Notes under the pieces: generated by a model
What the model was told of the DNA's origin: nothing
The model's database searches: none
The model's input: the letters and a program-made list of their open reading frames with translations, nothing else
Source of the DNA: Amoeboaphelidium occidentale
Taxonomy: Eukaryota
Assembly (NCBI GenBank): GCA_023515795.1
Contig: JALGPX010000071.1
Span: 1 to 57,348 of the forward strand
Length of the DNA: 57,348 nucleotides
Direction: 5' to 3'
Part shown: one piece after another, positions 5,174 to 55,622 of the stretch
How positions within the stretch are numbered: the stretch's first letter is position 1
Layout of the letters: every line of letters begins with the position of its first letter
Translations under genes and position numbers: made by a program

Positions 5174-6496
5174 TTACTTTGGTGAAACGAGCTCTTGCTG
5201 ATCGACAAAGGAACGTTTAAACGCCTCCCTCGAAAGACTCTCTTCCAGCGCGACAACAGTCGCCGAAACAAACTCTTCAGTGCGCTTGTCGTAAAAAACA
5301 TTTTCTGGCTCAACGTCGGAGTCATACTCGGGATAATATCCCTCGTCTTCCTCTTCAGCACCGGCTGCCATGCGCCAAATCAGGCATGCAGCTCTGTGGA
5401 ATTCCAATGCCTTGACGTTTGGGCGCAAGTCCACAGGTTGAGCTGGTCTGTTGGATCTTGACGCTCGTTCATTTTGAGGATGTTCCAAAGGGTTCATGAA
5501 CNAAACAAACTCTTCAGTGCGCTTGTCGTAAAAAACATTTTCTGGCTCAACGTCGGAGTCATACTCGGGATAATATCCCTCGTCTTCCTCTTCAGCGCCA
5601 CCAGCCATGCGCCAAATCAGGCACGCAGCTTTGTGAAACTGCAATGCCCTGACATTCGGGCGCAAGTCCACAGGTTGAGCTGGTCTGTTGGATCTTGACG
5701 CTCGTTCATTTTGAGGATGTTCCAAAGGGTTCATGAACCATAAAGCAAGTTCTCCATTGGTTTCAACGTCTCTTGTAGGCCATGCGGGATGCTGCCCCTG
5801 ACGTATCAATTTGAGCGTATTTACAGTTATCTCCCAGGCCGCCTCATCACTCTCCCTCAGCCCCTTGACAACCTTTACTACATACTTCCGGTTTCCATTC
5901 TCCTCAACAACATCAACGTATCGCTTCAACTTGTCAAATTGGCCATGACAATTGCTGCACAAGTAGAGCCCATTCTGCACCTGATTCTTTGAATCCAATC
6001 CGACTCGGTCAAGTATTGATCTTTCGTTGTATTGAACGGGCACATCCTTCTTAGCGACAATATGGGTGGCATTACACTCAATATCGTTCCAACAGAATAA
6101 GCAGACACCGTCCCTCTCACGAACAGAGTGCCTGAATTGTGAATCTGTAATTTCTGGTGCATGTTCGCCGTTGATTTCTTGTCTAGAATTTGCACGCGAC
6201 GATGGTCTTGATGGAGGCGTACGATAGCTACTCCCAGAATGTTGATGGAACACTGCAATGTAACGCTGATAGCAGGACTCAATGAATTCTTCAACTTCTG
6301 CCATTTTCTCTTCTGAGTTGGACTCTAGAATATCACTGAGCCTGTCCTTGTCCTCACGAAATCCGTATTCAGCAATGCCAACCAAGAACCCGTGCTTATT
6401 TTCGTTGATCCACTGTGAACGTGTCCTGGGAGTCGGTATAACAATCTCATCGTCTGCAAAGCCAAAAAGGCGATTCAATGCCAGTTTGTAGTCCAT
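5174..6496 (-). CDS. Crinkler-like HNH endonuclease (3' end artefactually duplicated around N5502)
   Basis: VRERDGVCLFCW...ATHIV...NGLYLCSNCHGQFD is an HNH_2-type signature. Intronless. 5266-5501 is repeated at 5503-5738. Confidence 0.7.
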   Translation of the reverse strand: MDYKLALNRLFGFADDEIVIPTPRTRSQWINENKHGFLVGIAEYGFREDKDRLSDILESNSEEKMAEVEEFIESCYQRYIAVFHQHSGSSYRTPPSRPSSRANSRQEINGEHAPEITDSQFRHSVRERDGVCLFCWNDIECNATHIVAKKDVPVQYNERSILDRVGLDSKNQVQNGLYLCSNCHGQFDKLKRYVDVVEENGNRKYVVKVVKGLRESDEAAWEITVNTLKLIRQGQHPAWPTRDVETNGELALWFMNPLEHPQNERASRSNRPAQPVDLRPNVRALQFHKAACLIWRMAGGAEEEDEGYYPEYDSDVEPENVFYDKRTEEFVXFMNPLEHPQNERASRSNRPAQPVDLRPNVKALEFHRAACLIWRMAAGAEEEDEGYYPEYDSDVEPENVFYDKRTEEFVSATVVALEESLSREAFKRSFVDQQELVSPK

Positions 6497-6639
6497 TGAC
6501 TATGTTGAAGAAAAGAAGAGCAATAGCAACGAGCCTTAGGTTTGATCCAATCATCGACTCGATCATTTGCTTGATTGATCGAGCTCTATGTGCCTTTACA
6601 CTCACGTATGCGCTTGTAAGCTCTGTATATATTTGGTTG

Positions 6640-7040
6640 CTGTAGTATCAATGAGTTGTCATTATCTTGGTGTAGAAGGCTAGCGTCAAATCATCAAGTT
6701 GCCGGAAGTGTTGGAGGTTTCTGTGTTGAGCCAACACTATCCAGTTCTTGATTAATTCTTGCTGCTTCACGTCAGAATGTTTATTAATGATGCCTGTGTA
6801 TCTTCAAGGGTTGTATACTTAACTATTTGTGGCTGTTTGGTTATCCACACAGATTGCTAGTCGCTGATTCTCTGTGATCTTGGAATGAATACTCAAACTC
6901 AGGGCTCTACAAGTTCTTCAAATGGTTTCATTTCGTTTGGGAGGACTCTGTGTATTGTTTCAAGTGGAAGTCTTATAGAAGGTGCGATTCATCGTTCGCT
7001 TTGATTGTGAGTCGTCGTATGATTTCGAAGCTCTTGTGGT
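6640..7040 (-). pseudogene. Possible decayed Ty1/copia integrase-region remnant
   Basis: Stop- and frameshift-ridden minus-strand fragments (SKRTMNRT, RLPLETIHRVLPNEMKPFEEL, VFIPRSQR, VYNP) occur in the order of the copia ERMNRT/NRLP-PYE/VHIP/YRVYDP motifs. Weak similarity. Confidence 0.3.
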
Positions 7041-9285: not shown

Positions 9286-10278
9286 TCCGGTACTTGTTAA
9301 AAATAGTTCGTACTCCAATAATTGGGTAAACTTTATGACATCGTTTCATATAAAGGGAAATGATTAAATGAATGGCGAAATCTCTGGAATTGGCACCATT
9401 CTTGATAAAAGTCTGGATTTATTCGATCACAAGCTATTCTTCGGCACATAAAGGATTTTTTTCAAGCAAAATATTAATAATTTTGCAAATAGCATAGAAG
9501 ATCAATCATCTAATTGTGGTGTTTCAACTTGGAGCAATAAAAGAAGGATATACAATTTTCGGAGCGTTTTGGAATACATTTTGCTGCGAGTGGAAATAAC
9601 TAGTTCTCACTGACCAGCTAACTACGGGTACGTGAGTTCCATTCTTCAAACTTTCACAAATCACAATAAACCTTTTTCGTGCTGAAGCAATACAGTAGGT
9701 TGCTCAGGGCGCGCAGAGCCTTGACGCGAAGCATAAATGAAACATCCAAATAGTCGTTTTCCGAGGAGTGTTCAATTGTAGTGGTATTATTAGTAGAATT
9801 ATTCATTGGTTCCGCGTTCTGAATTCTCTAAATCATAAATCAGTGTCGTGAAACAAAGCAATTTCTGTATCCATTTCTTACTAACGGTGGAAATAGCAGT
9901 TGCATTGGTAGAAGTAGCAGTGAAATTTCAGGACCTTTATGGCAAAGTACAAAATTGTGACAGTTCCCGATACTGATTGCACATCTGGAGAGAAATACTG
10001 AAGAACTGGGAGCTGTTACTACAATGAAGTCTTCCGGTAAGCCAGAAGAATTTGAGACTTCAACTGACTTTGGTGTAACCTTGCGATGACCCGGGTCATC
10101 TGTTAAGCCAACCAAAAATTCCATCCAATAGATGTCCATGATACATTAGATTTCGAGATCTAATGAGATTTGAGTATTTGTACACACATGTAACCTTGAA
10201 AGATCAAATCAGCCAATGATATCGCTGGAGCTCTGCGGGATAAAAACTAAATTTCTTTATTCCAATAAGACCGCCAAT

Positions 10279-12099
10279 CTACTCTTGCAAGTCCAGGTTT
10301 CGTAACGCAGGGAACGTATCATGCAATTCATCAAGTAATACCACATAGTCTTTGACTTCAGCAGTATTTGTGCCAACACATGATCTAGGAACGATCCAAT
10401 ACAATTCCATGCCTTCATGATTTGAATCTCCAAAACAAAGTTCCTTCCATCTCTTACCATTATCCCCTGCGCCATTCATTTTCCTATGCGAAGAAAAAGG
10501 CTTCTGTAAAGTGATCTGAAAACCCATTAATACTTTCCGTTTAGAATCCCACAAAAATAAATCAAAGCCTGGGTAATTTGAACATTCAGGAATGAATAAA
10601 GTTGTAACTCTAGGATTGAATGAAGATTCCGTAGGAACACCCATACCATTAAAGCGCACAATGTAGGTAATCTCAATAGTACGTTTGGAAGCAACCCTCT
10701 GGGACAATCCATTCTTCGTGGTTTTGCGGCATGAAAAAGTAAACATTCTTGTCAGTTCCAAGGATGTAACAATGTACTTCTCAACGATACGCCCTTTGGT
10801 GTCATTTGTGTAACCTCCATTGAATACAACTTCCGCGACCATTCCAAGAGAGTTCATGAGACCAACTCCATGATACCCCAACAACGCTTGACGAGCAATA
10901 GGATTCAACGCAGTGATCAAAGCATCGCCATTATCATCCTGGATGATGTCAAAGACTTGTCTGTCCATTCCTGTGATGGTTTCTGGAGGAGAAAGTCCAA
11001 AAGCCATGCGAGTAATGCATTCTCGTAGATTCTGTCTTCTTAGTTCAGACAAATTATCAGAAAATTTTGCATGCATGTCCGCCATCTCCTTCATCCTTTC
11101 ATGACGATACAAGGCTGTTTTTTCTTGCAATGTTTCTTTTGGTTGCTTCCATAACAGACTCAGTTCATAAGGAACACCACCAGTCCAATAAAATGCTTCA
11201 ACAGCTTCATCAGACTTGGGATTAATTTTCACATCGTTATGAAGCCAATAATAATCACACCATGCCTTAAACTCGTCATCATCAAAGTTGTGGGATGAAA
11301 TGTCATAAGTGTACCAACCCTTCATCTCAGTTGGATAACCTTCATTGTTTGCAGAAGCAGAAATCACGACTTTGACACCAGCTGTAGAATAATTCGAAAG
11401 TTTGCTAATGATATTGAATGGAAACTTATCTACTAAAACAGAACGAGCATACAAAGCATTGTGCTGATCACATATAATTATCCATTCAAGCTTAGCCAGC
11501 GTAACGTAGTTAACCAAAATATCAATCAGCTGTTCCAACATTTCTTCCCTTTCAGAGCCACGAACAGCATTGCACCACTCCACAATAGATTTTCCTTGAA
11601 TAGTATCATCATAGAATGTAGTAACAAGTTCTCGTAGAATGTAACCGTAAATATCTACACGCCAAGAACCACAGTCATTGATGTAAGTCACTCTGAAGCC
11701 TTCATTCCTTTTCATGCGAAGTTCAGTAGCCAAGAGATACAGCGAATGACTCTTCCCAACACCAACTGGTCCACGAACGTAAAGACCATTGTTTTCTTCC
11801 CCATCAAGTTCAAGCACGACTTCTTTCAAGTTTGCGTAAGACTTCCTCATGATGAAATGGACAACAGTTTTCTGGACCTTAAAACGATATTGCAGCTGGT
11901 GAGGTGAAATCAGTGGTAAAGCCAAGGCTTGTGGTGTAGTAGGAAACCCGACGATGGATTCCACAGCTTTTTGTGACTTAACTGCAAAATCTCTGGTAGA
12001 TTCAAGAGTACGGATAGGCAGTGAAGGAAACGCATCATCGTTTCTTGTTTCATCGATCTTGCGCTTTTTAGGATATACTCGAACTGCTGACGACGACAT
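10279..12099 (-). CDS. Crinkler-like P-loop NTPase fused to a PD-(D/E)xK restriction-endonuclease-fold domain
   Basis: Walker A GPVGVGKS, Walker B-like IIICDQHN, TGGVPYEL helix and C-terminal SNYPGFDLFLWD...GFQIT. NLS-like PKKRKID near the likely start at 12099. Intronless. Confidence 0.75.
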   Translation of the reverse strand: MSSSAVRVYPKKRKIDETRNDDAFPSLPIRTLESTRDFAVKSQKAVESIVGFPTTPQALALPLISPHQLQYRFKVQKTVVHFIMRKSYANLKEVVLELDGEENNGLYVRGPVGVGKSHSLYLLATELRMKRNEGFRVTYINDCGSWRVDIYGYILRELVTTFYDDTIQGKSIVEWCNAVRGSEREEMLEQLIDILVNYVTLAKLEWIIICDQHNALYARSVLVDKFPFNIISKLSNYSTAGVKVVISASANNEGYPTEMKGWYTYDISSHNFDDDEFKAWCDYYWLHNDVKINPKSDEAVEAFYWTGGVPYELSLLWKQPKETLQEKTALYRHERMKEMADMHAKFSDNLSELRRQNLRECITRMAFGLSPPETITGMDRQVFDIIQDDNGDALITALNPIARQALLGYHGVGLMNSLGMVAEVVFNGGYTNDTKGRIVEKYIVTSLELTRMFTFSCRKTTKNGLSQRVASKRTIEITYIVRFNGMGVPTESSFNPRVTTLFIPECSNYPGFDLFLWDSKRKVLMGFQITLQKPFSSHRKMNGAGDNGKRWKELCFGDSNHEGMELYWIVPRSCVGTNTAEVKDYVVLLDELHDTFPALRNLDLQE

Positions 12100-12471
12100 G
12101 GCAGACAACATTCCGAAGAAAAAGCTGGTCCAAACTGTGTGATTGGACGGTTCATCCACCAACCAGCGAGTTAATAGATCTACCCCAAGTGATTGTTGAA
12201 CACAAGTGTATGCAAATAATTGCTGACTCTCGCTCCGAAATCCTCATTCCGTTGTAAATCAGGTAGAACATCTAAACATCTGCAAAAGTTTCTTAAAGCG
12301 CTGAGATCAGGATCAAATATAAACTTTAATGCAACTACCCTACTTAATGAAGCGCAATTCTCAAGTACTTCTAATTCGAATGCGAACGTTTTAGAGCAGC
12401 TTGTGAACGTGTAAAGGGAACATTGTGTTTACCTTCATACAATGAATCGTTTTTAATAGAAGTTTGTGTAG

Positions 12472-43105: not shown

Positions 43106-45859
43106 ATGGACGGAAATTTCAAGGGGCAATCGCAGCAGCAACAGCAGCAACAGATATCACAGCCCATAGCAAAACCACATGCACAAGGAAATGTAATTTA
43201 TACGCGGTGATCATCTAACGCTCTCGTGTAGATGGCTTCGTTTCTTCGCTCCAGACTGGAAAATAATTCTAATGACTTGTTACCGTCGCAGAAGGGTGGA
43301 ATTATCAATCGATCATCATCTGCGCCACCTGTGCAATGGATAAACAGCTCAGATCCGTTGGGCTGCGAAGATGAATCGTTGTTATTACAACAGAACCAAT
43401 TGCAGCCTCAGCAACAACAGCAACAACATCCTTATAATACTCAGAATTCTGTTGATCAACGTCAAAATGAGGCATTGAGGGCACATCCTGATTATGCGAC
43501 TTATTACTTCAATAATGCTCGCTTGGATCCGCGTCTGCCTCCGCCAATTATTGCACCTGGACAGAGCTGGAAACTGTGGGCATCTCCACAAGTTGTACAG
43601 CAGCAGCAGCAGCAACAGCAACCTCGTCAGGAACAGGTTGATAATCATTATGAAGCTGATCCTGAATGGCATTTATTGCGAGCAAATTTACAAGCTGTGA
43701 CAGAATCGCCCATTGCCGAAAAGCCTCCTGGTGAGCTGCCTTTGGTTTATGGTAGTCCATCAATGAATGGGAATCTTGGAGTAAACATGGAATCTCTTAT
43801 GAAAAGTAACAGATCAGATTCTGCTCTAGCATCAAGACTGTTGAACCCCATGTCTAGCCAAGGAAAGAAAAGTCTTGTTGATATAATTCAAGAGGATTTT
43901 CCACGTACTCCATCGCCTGTATACGCGCAACTGCAACGTCCTCAAACCTCAGTTCCTGCTCCAAGTACATTTATGACAGAACAAATGGATATGAGGCTAT
44001 CATCAAAAACACCTCCACCTGCAGTTATTGGAAATTTAATTGGTGCATCTCTTCCAAGATCTTCTTCTACTCCACCACAATCTTTGCACAGAATAAGAAT
44101 GAATGCTAATCAGGTAGTTGGCGTTTCACCTTTACATCATGACGCTTCAGCAGATTATCAGCCATTTGTGACTAATCAACTCAGAGCTTTGGATATCAAT
44201 TCGAGAGATGGCGGTTATGATAATCCATATAATGGCTATTCACAAGCAAACAGCTACGGACATCGCTCAACTCCTTCTCATTTTGATCAGTATCATGCTC
44301 AGCAGCAGCAGCAGCAACAACATCATCATCAACATCAACAACAACATCAACAGTACAATCAAAAGCAGCCTGTTATGGTTGCTTCTTTTTATCCTTCAAC
44401 TGCTCCTCCGGGTTTTAGTTCAAGCCAAGAATTCTATGATTCTCCAAATCAACAACGAAAAGGAAGAAAGAAGAACTACAGTTATANCATATAATGGCTA
44501 TTCACAAGCAAACAGCTACGGACATCGCTCAACTCCTTCTCATTTTGATCAGTATCATGCTCAGCAGCAGCAGCAGCAGCAGCAACAACATCATCATCAA
44601 CAGTACAATCAAAAGCAGCCTGTTATGGTTGCTTCTTTTTATCCTTCAACTGCTCCTCCAGGTTTTAGTTCAAGCCAAGAATTCTATGATTCTCCAAATC
44701 AACAACGAAAAGGAAGAAAGAAGAACTACAGTTATAGCGGTGGCCCTGATAATGAAAAGCAGAATGGTCGTTTTGCATCATCAGGGAACGCAGTTTTGGA
44801 TGATTTCAAATTGAACAATCGCACCAGGAAATATCAATTGAATGATGTTTATGGAAATATCGTTGCATTCAGTTGTGATCAACACGGATCGAGATTTATT
44901 CAACAAAACATCGAAACTGTATCTTCACAAGAGAAAGCAATGGTTTTCAAAGAAGTTATTCCACATGCTCTCAGTCTTATGACTGATGTTTTTGCTAATT
45001 ATGTTATCCAGAAATTCTTTGAGTTTGGATCTCCTCAGCAAAAGACCCAATTGGTAAAAGTAATGCAGGGACATGTCAAAGAAATAGCTTTCCAAATGTA
45101 TGGTTGCAGAGTTCTACAGAAGGCTCTGGAATCTATAAGTTTGGAGTTACAGCTCAATCTGATGGATGAGTTGAAGGATATAATTTTGCAATGTGTTACT
45201 GATCAGAACGGTAACCATGTCGTCCAGAAAGCCGTTGAGCGTATTCCAGCTGAGAAAATTCTTTATATTATTGATGCCACTCGTGGTCGTGTTCAATCTT
45301 TAAGTATGCACCCTTATGGCTGCCGTGTTCTACAACGCGTATTCGAACACTGTCCTGAAGATTTGATATCAGATCATTTGAAAGAATTACAATCTGCTTG
45401 CTATCAACTTGTTCAAGACCAATACGGTAAGTTCCAGAAACTTTCTAATTCACTAATACTTAAGGAAATTATGTTGTTCAACATATTCTTGACAAGGGAA
45501 GACAGAAGGACCGGGACATTGTCGTTGAGAAGATCAAGGGAAACATTTTGAAATTTAGCACTCACAAATTTGCAAGTAACGTCGTTGAGAAGTGTTTACT
45601 AGTTTCATCACCAGCGGATCGTGTGATTTTGTATGAAGAAGTATGTAATTCATCCACACCTTCTGGAGAGCCAATACTGATGGCTATGATGAAGGACCAA
45701 TATGCAAACTATGTCGTTCAAAAGATGCTGGACATTGCAGACGATAAATTAAGAGGTGATTTGGTTGCAAAGATTCTACCAATGTTCCCTCTATTGCGTA
45801 AATTTACTTACGGAAAGCATATCATTTCGAAAATCGAGAAATTGAATTTGGTTAACTGA
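43106..45859 (+). CDS. Pumilio/PUF RNA-binding protein (introns 43193-43231 and 45427-45464; artefactual duplication at N44487)
   Basis: Eight PUF repeats (DQHGSRFIQ, DVFANYVIQK, YGCRVLQK, DQNGNHVVQK, HPYGCRVLQR, DQYGNYVVQH, HKFASNVVEK, DQYANYVVQK). Both introns keep the frame. Confidence 0.92.
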
Positions 45860-50500: not shown

Positions 50501-51699
50501 TGGACGATAATCACAGCAACTTGATGGCTATGAACATGGTCAAGTCTTGGATCGCTTTGAACTTGGATATTCTTTCTTCTCTTTTCGTTTACGGAACTGC
50601 TCTCTTGATTGTTGTTAACCCATCTATTCCTGACAGAGGCTCTGTTGCTGGTTTGGCTTTATCTAATGCATTGCAGATGTTGGTCTTTGTCCAATGGACT
50701 GTAAGAATGTTTGGTGACGTCATTTCACAAATGAGTTCAGTTGGTCAGATTGACTACTATGGTACTAAAATCACTCCTGAAGCTCCTGCAAACATTCCAG
50801 AGACACATCCTGGCAAAGACTGGCCACAAACTGGTACCATCAACTTTGAAAATGTTGTTTTGAGATATACTCCAAACGGTGTCAACGTTTTGAAGAATGT
50901 CTCATGGAAGGTTTATCCTGGGGAAAAGATAGGTATTGTTGGCGCGACGGGATCAGGAAAATCTACTCTCCTGGTTGCCTTACTCAGAATCGTTGAAAGT
51001 TATGCTGGAAAAATTACAATCGATGGTGTGGACATCTCTAAGATCGGATTGGAGGAATTGAGATCATGCATTGCAATCATTCCTCAGGAACCAGTCCTGT
51101 TCAAGGGTACTGTGCGCTCCAATCTCGATCCGTTTAACAAGGCTACTGATGACGAAATCTGGAAAGCGTTGGAAGCAGTCTACCTAAAAGACAATATTGC
51201 TGTTCGTCCTGGCAAATTGGACTCTGAAGTCATTGAAAATGGTAAAAACTTCTCCTTAGGTCAGAGACAACTCTTCTGTATTGCTCGCGCTATCTTATCC
51301 AAGAGTAAGGTCCTTGTTTTGGACGAAGCTACTGCGAATGTTTCTCCTGAAACTGACATGCTTATCCAAAAAGCCATCAGAGACAACTTCAATGATTTGA
51401 CTGTTCTTACTATCGCTCACAGACTCAACACGGTCATTGATTCTACTCGTGTCTTAGTTATGGATGCTGGTCAACTCGTTGAGTTTGATGAACCGTTGAA
51501 TCTTTTAAAGAAAGACAAAGGTAATTTCAAGCATTTAGTCAGTTGCACTGGTCCTGCTACCGCAAAACGTTTGTATGACATGGCCGAGGAAGCTTATGAA
51601 AGCAACAGTTATTTGCGTCACTACTACGAGCAAGATCAAGCGCTAGCACCAAAGGGTAACTTGGATATTCAACAGTTCGCATCTGGAAACCAGAAGTAA
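47524..51699 (+). CDS. ABCC/MRP-family full ABC transporter
   Basis: TMD-NBD-TMD-NBD layout with IKFYAWE, GDVGAGKS, LSGGQ, GATGSGKS, FSLGQRQL, LDEATA and IAHRL. Confidence 0.95.
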   Translation: MSGKNSSKVAPAPHKVRGWWFLDDWFFGYVYRIGFNAWLYDRDALKFVLAKEDSAPFNAQLILDNWNKEKQEHPKDPSVFRALWKSYGKYYALVGLYKLVWSICTWFTAWYGLKMLLEFVQYKQSQSVGQAWALALFLGSFFSSIAIHQLYSQCNRVAVRVRAAVSSLVYRKALRLSRVRGGAGEVINILTGDLQRLVDAVANGHFLWSAFIESAAIIIISFLEIGISAIPALGFVILLLPLQMYLASKTSNANREQTATTTERVHIMSEILTAIKLIKFYAWEKPFRAKIDKIREKEIDCIYTAMMIKTLNFAIVFSVPVLIAVCSLAMYVSLGNTLQASTVFAVLSVFNTLRYPLLLLPMSVKGFASGRIALKKLDRFLDSEEIEELQIAPAIAGNEDLACEIKDADFRWDGGDTDAPTIKDINLTIKKGQKVAVIGDVGAGKSSLLCALLGQIRQTKGDKLKVFASTSYVSQEAWLFNDTLRQNILFGKDYDKEKYLEVVRVSGLQRDLTLLLAGDQTEIAERGANLSGGQRQRTSIARAVYYDADIILMDDALSAVDQHVGSHIFNECIMGYLKDKTVIMAIHQLQYLSQMDWIVMMKDGVIERQGTFEELMKYDKFSDLISRHVDSGEIEEADDEPEVSNDKNFELPAPPPQMVIKVDGEQSNEDKALAAEQQNIMTISSANMMYNELSMRKLHTVDERSVRTMLERNSLASFSRAGGRRVDIKTAIEQNEYSVYSIKDVQPVEKNDDDMQKAKGKITVEDKSADFTLGHCISVYAKAYNGAIIFTLACLFFFLVHGIRIGSDYWLRLWVPRVGGFSDAVYLGVYAGAVFLFATGVFLRGWWMSYLNVKKSSFLHSQLFHSVMRAPMSLFDSTPVGRILAAFSKHMLHVDDIMPDALFQFLQYAPLGLGALILCAVIVPYNYIPVLVLVAIASAVVYFSGKAEDKTKALEAITRPPIYAHLTCTLEGLLSIRSYHAEARFDQMNLAALDDNHSNLMAMNMVKSWIALNLDILSSLFVYGTALLIVVNPSIPDRGSVAGLALSNALQMLVFVQWTVRMFGDVISQMSSVGQIDYYGTKITPEAPANIPETHPGKDWPQTGTINFENVVLRYTPNGVNVLKNVSWKVYPGEKIGIVGATGSGKSTLLVALLRIVESYAGKITIDGVDISKIGLEELRSCIAIIPQEPVLFKGTVRSNLDPFNKATDDEIWKALEAVYLKDNIAVRPGKLDSEVIENGKNFSLGQRQLFCIARAILSKSKVLVLDEATANVSPETDMLIQKAIRDNFNDLTVLTIAHRLNTVIDSTRVLVMDAGQLVEFDEPLNLLKKDKGNFKHLVSCTGPATAKRLYDMAEEAYESNSYLRHYYEQDQALAPKGNLDIQQFASGNQK

Positions 51700-51735
51700 T
51701 CAATAATCATATGAATGATAATAAAAAATAATCGT

Positions 51736-52233
51736 TTATTTGTTCATCAAGGCGCTGTTCATCATTGGTGTGTGAGGTGAGTCGTAAGGCTTTAGAGGTC
51801 CAGACAACTTCAACAATCGGCCCTTGTTTCTAATATTGTACACGAACCAAGGCAGTACCTCTTTCTCCTTTACGTCTTCACTTAGCCATAATTTCTTTAC
51901 TTCTTCAGCTAACCGTTTCCTCTTTGGGCATCCAACAGGACACTCTTCTTCCTCCAATCGCCTCTTTTTGTTTTGATACTCTTCGTAATGCGGGTCATGC
52001 ATTGAAGTATTTGAGCTGACAGAATTCAAAGGCGCAACGTAAGACGGGCGAGCATTCTTCATCTTCATCAACGCAGACACGGTAAACGTTTCAAAATCCA
52101 CAAGCGAAATGTAATCAGGTTCGCGATTTGATTGTTGTTGCGGCGCATTAGTGACGACAGGAGCATCGTTGCTTTCCCGTTCATCTCTAACGATGGAGTT
52201 TTGTAATAAAATGAGTTGAGGTGAAGTTTCCAT
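51736..52233 (-). CDS. Hypothetical 165-aa protein with basic NLS-like motifs
   Basis: ATG-started ORF converging on the ABC gene, containing KKRRL and KRKRL. Confidence 0.5.
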   Translation of the reverse strand: METSPQLILLQNSIVRDERESNDAPVVTNAPQQQSNREPDYISLVDFETFTVSALMKMKNARPSYVAPLNSVSSNTSMHDPHYEEYQNKKRRLEEEECPVGCPKRKRLAEEVKKLWLSEDVKEKEVLPWFVYNIRNKGRLLKLSGPLKPYDSPHTPMMNSALMNK

Positions 52234-52437
52234 ATCAAAGTTGGAATTACAGGGGAATCACAAAAAAATTCTATCAAAGGGGCAAAGCTCACGAAATAAT
52301 TTCAGCAAAAGGGACAATTATGGAACAGATATTCGAAAAGTTTATTGCGCAGAGCTCCAGCTCAAGCGTCTACATGCTGCGAACTGGAGTGCGAATGAGC
52401 TTTCTTAAAGGGGGTATATCTAGCTCCCTCTGAGCCC

Positions 52438-52632
52438 TGCAAGTTATGTTCCTTATGTTTACATGAGTTGAAACAGACAAAGTTTTGGGCGGTTAAAGTC
52501 TGTAATTTAGATTGCTTAACTGTTTGGAACAGGGACATCAACGCTGCACGAAATATCAGACATGTTTTCTTGGATTTGAATGCAAATGAAGGTAAAAGAC
52601 CGCTTGCGTTCTCCAGGAAGAATCGTGCATGA
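52438..52632 (+). pseudogene. Fanzor1/TnpB-like nuclease C-terminal remnant (zinc finger + RuvC-III)
   Basis: CKLCSLCLHELKQTKFWAVKVCNLDCLTVWNRDINAARNIRHVFLDLNANEGKRPLAFSRKNRA*. No ATG, and an upstream in-frame TGA at 52396-52398. Not in the ORF track. Confidence 0.8.
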
Positions 52633-52790
52633 TGTTTCGTCAGCTAACTGCAAAATTTAATTGGTGGAGAAAGGTGATTATGCTTCCACAGTCTCCACCA
52701 GCGTAGCCGAGAAATCTTGCGATTCGTGTGACGCTCTTCTAAGTAAGATTTGGTTTTATTTGAACTAATCCTGTAGCGAAGGGCCAGTTA
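52633..52790 (+). ncRNA. Putative Fanzor omegaRNA scaffold / transposon right end
   Basis: Stems TGGTGGAGA (52662-70)/TCTCCACCA (52692-700), AAATCTTGC (52712-20)/GTAAGATTT (52743-51) and TAACTG (52645-50)/CAGTTA (52785-90), immediately 3' of the nuclease stop. Boundaries are inferred. Confidence 0.5.
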
Positions 52791-52857
52791 TTAGTAATAA
52801 TGCGAAATGGTAAAAATAAAGTAATACGGAACTTAATGTGAAGATAAGTATAAAGTA

Positions 52858-53436
52858 TCACGTACTTGCTACTAAAGCCAAGTACTTTGCGGAAGGCAAC
52901 TTGGAATTGCTCGACTCAGATCCAGTATCAGGTGTAATTTTTTCAATATCTTGGACACACGTGACCAGAGTTTGTATCTCGACTCTGTCTTCAGTGTTAG
53001 AGTAGACAAATGACAAAGATTCCAGATCCTTTGCGAACATACTCAAAGTGCTGAGTTTGAACCAGACTTTATAATTCAAAGCCTTTAGGAACTCATTTTC
53101 CATCGTATTGACATCGTGCAATGGAATTTTCGACAGTTTTGACCAGACAGCGTTTGTGTAGGATTTATCATCAAGAACTTTGTTCGCGAGTATCAGACCA
53201 ACCAGAATTAGGCGATACTCAACACCGCGTATTTCTGCGCTGTACTTCTTTGATAGAATTGATCTGATACGTACACAATATGCTAGTGCAAGCAAGATCG
53301 TGCGTCTACAAACTCGAGTAGTTGTGACAAGCTGCAATATGAACTGCGCCAAAGAATCCAGATCCTGCTGTGATGGTTTCTGTTCATGCCACTGATTAAA
53401 CAGTACACTAGCGGCGAACTGCGAGATTGATTTCAT
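52858..53436 (-). CDS. PHO80/PCL-like cyclin (tandem copy 1)
   Basis: LILANKVLDDKSYTNAVWSKLSKIPLHDVNTMENEFLKALNY. Confidence 0.85.
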   Translation of the reverse strand: MKSISQFAASVLFNQWHEQKPSQQDLDSLAQFILQLVTTTRVCRRTILLALAYCVRIRSILSKKYSAEIRGVEYRLILVGLILANKVLDDKSYTNAVWSKLSKIPLHDVNTMENEFLKALNYKVWFKLSTLSMFAKDLESLSFVYSNTEDRVEIQTLVTCVQDIEKITPDTGSESSNSKLPSAKYLALVAST

Positions 53437-53606
53437 AAGGGACTTGTTTCAATTCTGAGTCACAAAAATCTGCAAGTGACATATCATGTTCTAGAACTTT
53501 ACCTGACAGTTAGTTGGTCATTCCTCTGGTGATTGGCGTATTTAGCCGAACGGAAGCCGATTTTAGTTTTTCCCACCTCAAGGAACAACAAAACGTATTT
53601 ATTTAT

Positions 53607-54227
53607 TTATTGAGCTACAGGCAAGGTATCAGAGCTAGAAACAATTGGAAGCTGCTTTGCTGAGAATGTAGCAACTTTGATATCATCGTATTGATCTGTA
53701 AAACGACATTGTCTTTCTTCAAAAGAGTGTATCAGTGACTGAACTGTGAGTAAACTCGAAGGCTTACAATACTTCATAGCAAGCAAGTTGAGATCCTTCA
53801 AGAAATCTTCCATTAAATTAGCCTTGAACCAAACGCGGTAACTAAGAAGCTGCAACAATTCAGTTTCCATCTTGTTCAGTTCTCGTAACGGTATTTGACT
53901 TATAAGACTCCATTCCGCATTACGAAACGGATTGTCATCAAGAACCTTATTAGCGATAATCAAACTTGTGATGAAGATTCTGTAAACTACGCCATGATTA
54001 TCACGTTCATCATGCTGTTTCAACAACGTACTCAGCTTGCTACTTAAAGCAAGACACAAAATCAGTGTGAAGTAGCTAATTTGAGTCTTCTCCGTGATTT
54101 TGGCAATGAACTTGTAGAGCTTTTTGAATTGATCAAGAGTTGGATCACCACCAACTTGCCACTGTCTCAACAACACGATAGTCGCAAACTCAATAAGCAA
54201 GGTGTACTTCTTGTGTTCAGTTTCCAT
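53607..54227 (-). CDS. PHO80/PCL-like cyclin (tandem copy 2)
   Basis: LIIANKVLDDNPFRNAEWSLISQIPLRELNKMETELLQLLSY. Confidence 0.85.
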   Translation of the reverse strand: METEHKKYTLLIEFATIVLLRQWQVGGDPTLDQFKKLYKFIAKITEKTQISYFTLILCLALSSKLSTLLKQHDERDNHGVVYRIFITSLIIANKVLDDNPFRNAEWSLISQIPLRELNKMETELLQLLSYRVWFKANLMEDFLKDLNLLAMKYCKPSSLLTVQSLIHSFEERQCRFTDQYDDIKVATFSAKQLPIVSSSDTLPVAQ

Positions 54228-54634
54228 GTCGTAACCCGAATGATGAAATTCTGACGGCAATTGTAGTGCATATATTTAGACCGTGACGTAATCAAATGAC
54301 TGTCAATTACCATGGCGTCATCGGATACATCTAAACTATGAACGGTCAGGTCATAGAATCTCTCACATTGATATCTCCTAGTTTCAGTGGTCTTTCGTGA
54401 ATGATTTCAGTGCGAGCCGTTGTAACCACCGACAAACCTCGTTCCCTTTGAAACTTAAAGCTGGTAATCAAAATGATATGACCGACATCGTAGTTAATTC
54501 TCGGTAACACTCAGGATGTAGTCATTCACTTAGCAACATGATAAGCATTAACATTTATTGAAATAGGAATTGATTATTAATTGAAACAGTTAACAAAACG
54601 TGTTGGTAAAGATAAAGAACAAAGATGATAAGAA

Positions 54635-55162
54635 TTAATCAAAATGCAGTGCACTTCTTACAATGTCTTGAACAGCGGCCAGCTCATGATACTGTAAACC
54701 AAATTGATCAAGCGAATCTAGGATACTCAGCAAAAAGCGCTTCAAACAACTGAACGAGAGCCAAACTTGGAAACCCAATACACCAAGATACTCTCGTTCC
54801 ATAGCACTGATCTCCTCAAGTGATACCAAAGATATTTTACTCCAAGCCACATTGGTGTATGCTTTATCATTGACAATTTTGTCAACGAGTATCAGAGACA
54901 TCAACAGTAACCTACACCCACAACCTTTTGCTTGATTGTTTGGCGTTCTTTTAATATGAGGCACTAGTTTAGTACAAAGATACAATGCGTACAGTACATT
55001 ATACTCTGGGACTTTTGATCTTCTTAGGAGTAACATACAAAAGCGTTTCAACTGATTGCTTTCCTTTCGCCCAACCTGTGCCGGTGATAAGTACCATTCT
55101 CGTAGAATAAAAGCAGATGCGAACTTTGAGAGCGCACTTAGTTCCCGTGACATGAAACTCAT
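54635..55162 (-). CDS. PHO80/PCL-like cyclin (tandem copy 3)
   Basis: LILVDKIVNDKAYTNVAWSKISLVSLEEISAMEREYLGVLGF. Start is 55162 or 55153. Confidence 0.8.
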   Translation of the reverse strand: MSFMSRELSALSKFASAFILREWYLSPAQVGRKESNQLKRFCMLLLRRSKVPEYNVLYALYLCTKLVPHIKRTPNNQAKGCGCRLLLMSLILVDKIVNDKAYTNVAWSKISLVSLEEISAMEREYLGVLGFQVWLSFSCLKRFLLSILDSLDQFGLQYHELAAVQDIVRSALHFD

Positions 55163-55217
55163 CCGCAAAATGTTTGGGTTATTTATAGCTAAAGATGCAG
55201 TTCCTTTTTTTGTAGAG

Positions 55218-55622
55218 ATGATCATTTCGCAATCCGTTGTCAAGGTGTTGGATAATTCCGGTGCAAACCTGGTAAAAGTCTTCAATGTGCTGGGAAAGAA
55301 GAAAATCGTTGGTAGACTCGGTGATATCGTCGTAGGTTCAGTTAAGCAGACTAAACTATTGGAAGACACTAAAGCAAACTCGCGAGTTCAAAAGGTATCA
55401 AAGGGCCAAGTGGTACGCGGAGTTCTAGTAAGATGCAAAAAGGAAACGCGTAGAGAGGATGGTTCTTATATCAGGTTCGATGATAATGCGATTGTGCTGG
55501 TGGAGTTAGACAAGAAGAAGGGCGTTGTCCCAAAAGGCACACGAGTTACCGGTGTCATAGCACAGGAACTTCGCAAGAAAAACATGACGAAAATCCTGAG
55601 CTTAAGCCCTCTTATTGTTTAA
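55218..55622 (+). CDS. MRPL14: Mitochondrial ribosomal protein uL14m
   Basis: MIISQSVVKVLDNSGA, GDIVVGSVK, DGSYIRFDDNA and PKGTRVTG. Confidence 0.9.
   Translation: MIISQSVVKVLDNSGANLVKVFNVLGKKKIVGRLGDIVVGSVKQTKLLEDTKANSRVQKVSKGQVVRGVLVRCKKETRREDGSYIRFDDNAIVLVELDKKKGVVPKGTRVTGVIAQELRKKNMTKILSLSPLIV

Follow-up and report, generated by a model that had tools for sequence, protein, structure and literature searches.

A multi-copy 446-bp element of Amoeboaphelidium occidentale, probably a Fanzor1 ghost with a predicted guide RNA

The window analyzed here is a stretch of 57,348 nucleotides from contig JALGPX010000071.1 of A. occidentale (assembly GCA_023515795.1), a compact, intron-poor contig of eukaryotic character. 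Between two minus-strand genes it contains a coding remnant of Fanzor1 origin, which lies within a short multi-copy element (Table 1). The right-hand neighbor is the first of three tandem cyclin genes (PF08613) on the minus strand (52858-55369), the last of which overlaps a plus-strand ribosomal L14 ORF (55056-55622). The left-hand neighbor (51736-52233, minus strand) has an orthologue, P0160, on an 11,889-bp Logan contig, where it was called 20 residues longer at the N-terminus. Elsewhere the window contains an HNH_2 endonuclease-domain gene (5174-6496), an archaeal-type ATPase gene (ATPase_2/AAA_22; 10279-12162) and a Pumilio-family gene (43232-45551) in which the sequence on either side of an N (44487) is partly duplicated, probably a scaffold-join artefact.

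Table 1. Positions of the element, its predicted parts and the adjoining host gene in the window.
Feature	Position	Strand	Basis or remark
446-bp non-autonomous element	52347..52792 (alternatively 52342-52787; boundary anywhere within TTATT)	+	Depth step, loose ends, empty sites
Target hexamer TTTATT, predicted TAM region	52341..52346	+	Last five bases TTATT recur at right end; one copy at empty site
Left-end hairpin, from the element's first bases	52347..52400	+	Inverted repeat 52355-52363/52381-52389
Fanzor1 3' coding remnant: C4 zinc finger (TNB), RuvC-III and stop	52438..52632	+	No start codon; RuvC-I and RuvC-II lost
RuvC-III Asp codon (WNRD), GAC	52534..52536	+	Alignment column invariant, 18/18 sequences
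Predicted 40-pair RNA hairpin, last 30 codons and stop	52543..52644	+	Likely 5' part of omegaRNA transcript
Predicted omegaRNA core, closing stem around three inner hairpins	52645..52792	+	Folding
Internal AATAAA, ~30 nt inside right end	52755..52760	-	Read from sequence
Right-hand TTATT repeat	52788..52792	+	Right flanks diverge behind 52792/52793
Predicted guide (right flank)	52793..52807	+	By published Fanzor1 layout; matches DNA after TTTATT at empty site
Cyclin-like host gene (Pfam PF08613)	52858..53436	-	Stop 66 nt from insertion

Translation of 52438-52632 on the plus strand yielded CKLCSLC-x14-CNLDC-LTVWNRDINAARNIRHVFLDLNANEGKRPLAFSRKNRA-stop with no break, within an open frame that starts at 52399, spans 77 codons and contains zero in-frame ATG codons. 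This agrees with the preliminary description, which had claimed an ATG-less clean frame with zinc-finger motifs and had placed the catalytic Asp at the codon that indeed encodes the Asp of WNRD. The arrangement of a C4 zinc finger followed by the RD of RuvC-III is as expected for Fanzor1. Against Pfam PF07282 the remnant scored E 1.7e-4 (22.1 bits, under the cut-off of 26.3), the 64-residue piece alone gave weak matches to solved structures, and a word-index search with it returned no longer relatives (5 candidates). However, phmmer retrieved 122 proteins at E≤1e-3 among 1.84 billion, many of them ~690 residues long and matched at the C-terminus, and when a profile built from 20 longer relatives was run against the six-frame translation of the window (2,249 segments), the remnant was its sole match (E 6e-28; runner-up E 1.9). 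Judged from these comparisons of translated sequence, the signal is beyond chance. The same profile scored SpuFz1 at 6e-18, GtFz1 at 1e-8 and TnpB at 0.04, and with an AlphaFold model of the relative P0013 (pLDDT 81.7) the structures of SpuFz1, PpFz1 and GtFz1 filled ranks 1-7. This test of Fanzor1 over Fanzor2 and TnpB, by profile and fold, was passed by the relatives and pertains to them rather than to the 64-residue piece itself. By homology, then, the origin of the remnant is Fanzor1. Of the complete ORF, D-E-D triad and REC/WED parts of an active Fanzor1 gene, the window copy retains RuvC-III only, and it has no ATG.

The closest relatives were two annotated A. occidentale proteins: P0002 (66 residues), another short copy that has lost two zinc-finger cysteines, and P0125 (KAI3657174.1, 325 residues). 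P0125 is identical to the window peptide at 50 of 55 positions (91%), and in a tree of 42 rows, of whose columns the window piece fills only one third, the two are sisters with a support of 100/99. All three catalytic residues are present in P0125: the DPG of RuvC-I (SLDPGR), the rearranged Glu, located six residues ahead of the zinc finger (NEHNTSKLC), and WNRD. The first two are deleted in the window copy. Around the break P0125 reads NEHNTSKLCSFC, and the window match begins at SK/KL, which places the break a few codons past the RuvC-II glutamate and bears out the proposal of an internally deleted, non-autonomous copy broken just after RuvC-II. The further expectation of an intact Fanzor elsewhere in the genome stood in part: P0125 has the D-E-D triad, but it is a partial annotation, and the full-length Fanzor1 ORFs named to A. 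occidentale fall in other families.

No full-length member of the exact family was retrieved. Protein searches of viral contigs gave only matches of 38-50% identity (17 loci; 11 loci), a scan of these contigs for the right-end pattern gave 0, 0 of the 31 candidates among metagenome contigs searched with P0125 belonged to the same family, and genome contigs, including prokaryote genomes, yielded 0 same-family loci. A profile scan of metagenomes found at least 50 loci over 7 of 64 parts; nine Fanzor-like loci (L029-L037) were inspected among the matches listed. A. occidentale, which seems unusually rich in Fanzor families, is the named source of seven among the 21 longer P0125 homologues. The long annotated Fanzor proteins (P0131, P0058 and others) held no credible Pfam transposase domain and look like repeated or merged pieces. 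Many annotated Fanzor1 proteins, among them P0131, P0132, P0139 and P0081, are built of repeated pieces, as would result if repeats had been collapsed or wrongly joined.

The ends of the element were located by aligning contigs of four runs (X1-X4) to positions 51500-53500. Depth was flat and single-copy on both flanks (~101) and reached thousands inside, a step of at least one to two orders of magnitude over ~52342-52792 in all four runs. Contigs with unrelated left flanks left the reference before 52341 (at least 14 in X1, at least 15 in X2 and at least 14 in X3, with 5 and 4 more at 52340), and right flanks diverged behind 52792/52793 (at least 7 contigs in X1, at least 5 in X3 and at least 5 in X4), as counted in the 24 loose-end rows listed out of 137. 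In X2, on a contig of 11,889 bp, and in X3, position 52341 was joined to 52788 with 446 bases skipped and five letters that fit either side. This is an empty site, which reads T-TTATT; the filled site reads T-TTATT-element-TTATT. Among the joints listed for X1, none was an empty allele. The target preference is strong, not absolute, since three listed pieces had an incomplete pentamer at one end: the alignments of X1 record 2 and X2 record 11 began at 52347, and that of X1 record 6 stopped at 52789. Terminal inverted repeats were absent, the best inverted match within the 60-nt ends being 6 bp. One contig of 103 bp, which matches the window without a difference over 100 bp, was present at 15x single-copy depth; copy number was not taken from summed contig depths (up to 72,000), and neither low-share runs nor uncovered stretches entered into the evidence. 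The element combines multiple copies, defined ends, the lack of a nuclease and an empty orthologous site, features expected of a ghost-type non-autonomous Fanzor element. Such an element would also express its right end as a Fanzor-bound omegaRNA with a guide of 14-15 nt taken from the flank, for which the folding described below is suggestive. A SINE or LINE origin was rejected in view of the two sharp ends, the missing tail and the fixed 5-bp repeat.

Depth at both ends far exceeded that of the interior at 52594-52688, which points to many copies that share these ends and have another or a diverged interior. An RNA run (X15), which gave only two aligned pieces, contained a contig with the left end of the element and other sequence after 52430; together with the depth at the ends, it indicates that other elements share these ends. 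Within the window, positions 10224-10244 on the minus strand match the target plus left end at 19 of 21 letters (0 expected in 100 shuffles, the pattern length having been set after the match was seen). This match, ~35 nt past the stop of an AAA-ATPase gene, stops short of the rest of the element and is possibly a left-end scar.

The clean frame had earlier been read as the sign of a recent deletion, and here the contigs speak otherwise. The deletion junction near 52438 was crossed by contigs of both X2 and X4, the X2 flanks differ from the window at 54 of ~1,555 bases (~3.5%), and family copies carry indels at 52442, 52569, 52667 and 52686-52688. With the junction shared by X2 and X4 and the X2 flanks this diverged, the deletion must be older than the insertion at this site, and the family has amplified since; it is the insertion, not the deletion, that looks recent.

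Parts of the element are predicted to fold. At the left end, the family-majority G at 52383 would complete a perfect 9-bp pairing; a 110-nt segment (52330-52439) folded with a z-score of -3.5, and the 56-nt end alone, treated as DNA, gave a non-significant z of -0.4. The coding tail (52540-52649) reached z -6.8, compared with a minimum of -2.2 over 79 background segments, and 52540-52792 folded at -87.5 kcal/mol, a value that 0 of 200 shuffles attained. Because this 40-pair hairpin over the coding tail is such an outlier, the retained tail is probably a guide-RNA scaffold, and a structured RNA of up to ~250 nt, comprising the last 30 codons and 160 nt past the stop, would explain why the deletion spared it. 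According to this folding model, the tail was likely kept for its RNA fold rather than for protein. The core is predicted to be closed by UAACUG (52645-52650) pairing with CAGUUA (52785-52790), a stem that takes in the TTA of the terminal repeat; 52633-52792 alone gave z -1.8 with a different terminal stem. This accords with reports that Fanzor1 scaffolds take in the 3' copy of the target-site duplication and that the GtFz1 omegaRNA overlaps 17 codons.

Variation between copies lends these folds weak support. The family-majority A at 52730 turns a G-U into an A-U pair in the after-stop fold and is unpaired in the long fold. Eight listed differences separate the remnant from its X15 counterpart, of which four fall on unpaired positions, two keep or improve pairs and two break pairs; the enrichment at unpaired sites is not significant (P ~0.07), and no two-sided compensatory change was seen. 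Among eight related loci, one (L030) had a strong coding-tail hairpin, in a different register. The scan of these loci in 30-nt steps scores the window itself at only -2.9 and can therefore miss hairpins. Rfam gave 0 matches at E≤1, and a scan for bacterial promoters and terminators found nothing above chance.

Taken together, we read the locus as one copy, which one strain carries at this site and two others lack, of a multi-copy, internally deleted Fanzor1 transposon of 446 bp that is incapable of making a nuclease and is likely a ghost that would supply a predicted guide RNA and be moved in trans; we put the probability of this reading at roughly 0.7. In the proposed mechanism, a transposase supplied in trans would recognize the hairpin ends and insert the element at TTTATT, so that the pentamer flanks it left and right. 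An omegaRNA with the right flank as guide would then arise when transcription reads through the right end. Loaded with this RNA, an intact Fanzor1 from the same family would cleave element-free alleles where TTTATT is followed by the matching flank, and repair would copy the element back into the cut empty allele. Such cut-then-copy-back has been reported for TnpB and proposed for Fanzor. The filled right junction reads GTTATT followed by the same flank, so that a TAM extending to the T at -6 would be needed to prevent self-cutting, for which the conserved CA outside the TA of SpuFz1 is a parallel; the six-base reach predicted here is longer than the 3-5 nt reported.

The guide RNA is predicted here from the folding of contig sequence, and the copies decay, through indels and, in P0002, the loss of two cysteines. 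Together with the excess of end depth over interior depth, these observations would also suit a passive MITE-like derivative that is mobile and makes no use of its RNA, the tail and hairpins being kept because the transposase would need long subterminal DNA or through the chance position of the deletion. We consider this unlikely, because the 40-pair hairpin is an extreme outlier, the predicted closing stem includes the terminal repeat, as in reported Fanzor1 scaffolds, and ghost omegaRNAs of Spizellomyces punctatus are reported to have worked in editing tests; even so, the structure could yet be plain inheritance from the parent. Translation of the remnant into a small zinc-finger protein that has a role of its own would fit the 77 open codons, the annotation of similar copies (P0002, P0124) by gene callers and the synonymous nature of six of the eight differences from X15 (P 0.002-0.004). 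The lack of an in-frame ATG and the sister copies that are frameshifted or have lost cysteines make it very improbable, however, and the synonymous excess, which indicates that the coding parents were under selection, fits descent from two coding parents equally well. An assembly artefact or a contaminating bacterial TnpB is hardly credible: although scaffold gaps and, at another place, a duplicated segment occur in the window, and none of the listed contigs spans the whole element, single-copy X1 contigs (records 1 and 8) enter it from each flank, the empty allele joins identical flanks, the relatives carry the Fanzor DPG and the rearranged Glu, and nothing was found in the prokaryote genomes searched.

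What moves the ghost is the weakest step in this reading. Narrowly first, as a tentative choice, comes a Crypton-type tyrosine recombinase for which the pentamer would be the crossover site: in CryptonS elements the two ends share a pentamer, one copy of which is taken as the target, and Fanzor-Crypton associations have been reported. An HUH transposase is a possible but doubtful mover and would be compatible with a ghost: with ends of the IS200/IS605 or Helitron2/Replitron kind, the right end would be an element-encoded mimic of the target and insertion would occur 3' of TTTATT. The missing inverted repeats, the hairpins at both ends and the oriented AT-rich target agree with this, as do the targets of IS605 (TTTAA, TTAC, TTGAT) and the related locus L030, which has GCGCAGAG upstream and CGGTTAT downstream and whose pentamers are unlike. 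The 60-nt ends hold no asymmetric inverted repeat of 8-15 bp of the Helitron2 type, however; Replitron-1 owns both of its direct repeats, whereas here one copy remains at the empty site, and the right pentamer varies in one listed copy. A DDE enzyme with a fixed 5-bp duplication is rather unlikely, and some other mover is improbable. Scans of viral, metagenome and genome contigs revealed no same-family loci, and no transposase of the family was found.

The stop codon of the cyclin-like gene is so close that the element sits in the 3' region of this gene. Read on the other strand, TTTATT is AATAAA. Of the 74 TTTATT sites in the window, 43 lie outside 37 ORFs (picked from 64 and covering 76%), and AATAAA occurs within 100 nt after the stop of 12 of the 37 in sense and 9 in antisense orientation, compared with 4 and 1 before starts. 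As read from the sequence, the internal AATAAA could take the place of the hexamer interrupted by the insertion. The cyclin-like gene is covered by a contig of X4 (run type not on record) that extends 18 nt past 52788, which is no more than a hint, since contigs do not reveal where an RNA ends. A more far-reaching proposal would be that an aphelid Fanzor1 family without terminal inverted repeats and with a non-DDE mover (a Crypton-type recombinase or an IS605-like HUH transposase) targets the polyadenylation hexamer and thus inserts at the 3' ends of genes in a compact genome, that its ghosts bring a replacement AATAAA, that their long omegaRNAs begin within the coding tail of the nuclease and, by way of a six-base TAM, direct Fanzor to the 3' ends of host genes, and that L030 is maybe a second member, with the same terminal motifs but in another host. 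We regard this as speculative and quite unlikely; AT-rich targeting combined with purifying selection against genic insertions explains the placement equally well.

In L030, positions 5859-6701 of a eukaryote-like contig hold a Fanzor1 tail that is likewise truncated; its terminal motifs come in the same order, and a strong hairpin is predicted over its coding tail. The locus is a single copy with undefined ends and flanking pogo-like ORFs (read by eye), and its protein falls outside the subclade of the window piece. A closing stem of six pairs is kept with two one-sided changes, a comparison of two sequences made after the fact. On a giant-virus-like contig (L029, 4698-7767), an IS630/mariner-like transposase ORF directly precedes a 696-residue Fanzor1 (read by eye); because L029 belongs to another clade, its transposase is not assigned to the element in the window. 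Two loci of one metagenome (L031, 4825-4900 region, and L036, 190-330 region) are alike for ~150 nt past the Fanzor1 stop and differ beyond, which makes the shared part a candidate for the omegaRNA and right end of a different family.

Since ghost Fanzors and Fanzor proteins of aphelids have both been reported before, the remnant in itself is unsurprising. The contribution of the locus is an element that is bounded at both ends, polymorphic for its insertion and accompanied by its empty site. It offers concrete predictions of the scaffold, the guide and the TAM (TTTATT) for this Fanzor1 clade, as well as a natural pair of filled and empty alleles for testing eukaryotic Fanzor homing, which does not figure among the demonstrated cases listed in a 2026 review. 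Its anatomy, without terminal inverted repeats and with hairpin ends, points to a transposase yet to be named. KAI3657174.1 is listed as a Fanzor HMM match in the supplement of PMC10711439, and sister families and close relatives are labelled FZ1 in Saito's table (PMC10432273 supplement). The A. occidentale Fanzors in these catalogues are given as proteins only, with no ends, target, ghost family or omegaRNA among 21 of the 26 and 16 of the 84 'occidentale' entries of the two tables. The literature searched, which excluded most subscription journals and Repbase, held no account of this family's ends, target or RNA and no paper on aphelid Fanzors, and only unrelated papers on Amoeboaphelidium transposons and on targeting of poly(A) signals.

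Fanzor1 families without terminal inverted repeats are known (MCi-5, MCi-2, MDe-4/5/6/12, CMe-1A and PCa-2; Bao and Jurka 2013, PMC3627910). By their descriptions in that source, these are 2-10 kb long, contain the whole Fanzor gene and have repeats of 6, 11 or 12 bp or none determined; a 5-bp TTATT repeat is found in none of the tabulated families. The nearest layout is that of MCi-5, with its fixed AT-rich repeat ATTTAT, and MCi-2A carries a partial Crypton recombinase. CryptonS and CryptonF elements (PMC3212892, PMC13565253) resemble the element in having no terminal inverted repeats and direct repeats of 4-6 bp; in the descriptions consulted, the CryptonS pentamer is TATGG rather than TTATT, hairpin ends are not described for Cryptons, and contig scans found no recombinase gene for the family. 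IS200/IS605 elements and IS1341-type TnpB (PMC13565253) share the absence of inverted repeats, the hairpin ends, the oriented AT-rich target and the right-flank guide, but they are prokaryotic and have TnpB rather than Fanzor1, and no Y1 transposase was found here. Helitron2 elements are described as having asymmetric inverted repeats of 8-15 bp and hairpins and as inserting after TTTT without a fixed repeat; membership was rejected as the 60-nt ends hold no such repeat. Membership in Spu-1/mariner or in the MITEs was rejected likewise, given a best inverted match of 6 bp and a repeat of TTATT, not TA. Spu-1, the ghost of S. punctatus (PMC10432273), is nonetheless short, abundant, nuclease-less and structured at its right end, as is the element in the window. 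Spu-1 is described there with inverted repeats of 30-33 nt, TA duplications, a 75-nt scaffold and ghosts without an ORF, and the conserved sequence just outside the left repeat is CA in Spu-1/SpuFz1 and T here. Unlike Spu-1, the element in the window is known from contigs alone, lacks terminal inverted repeats, has a 5-bp repeat and keeps a coding tail with a long predicted hairpin; by analogy, it may nevertheless work as the Spu-1 ghost does.
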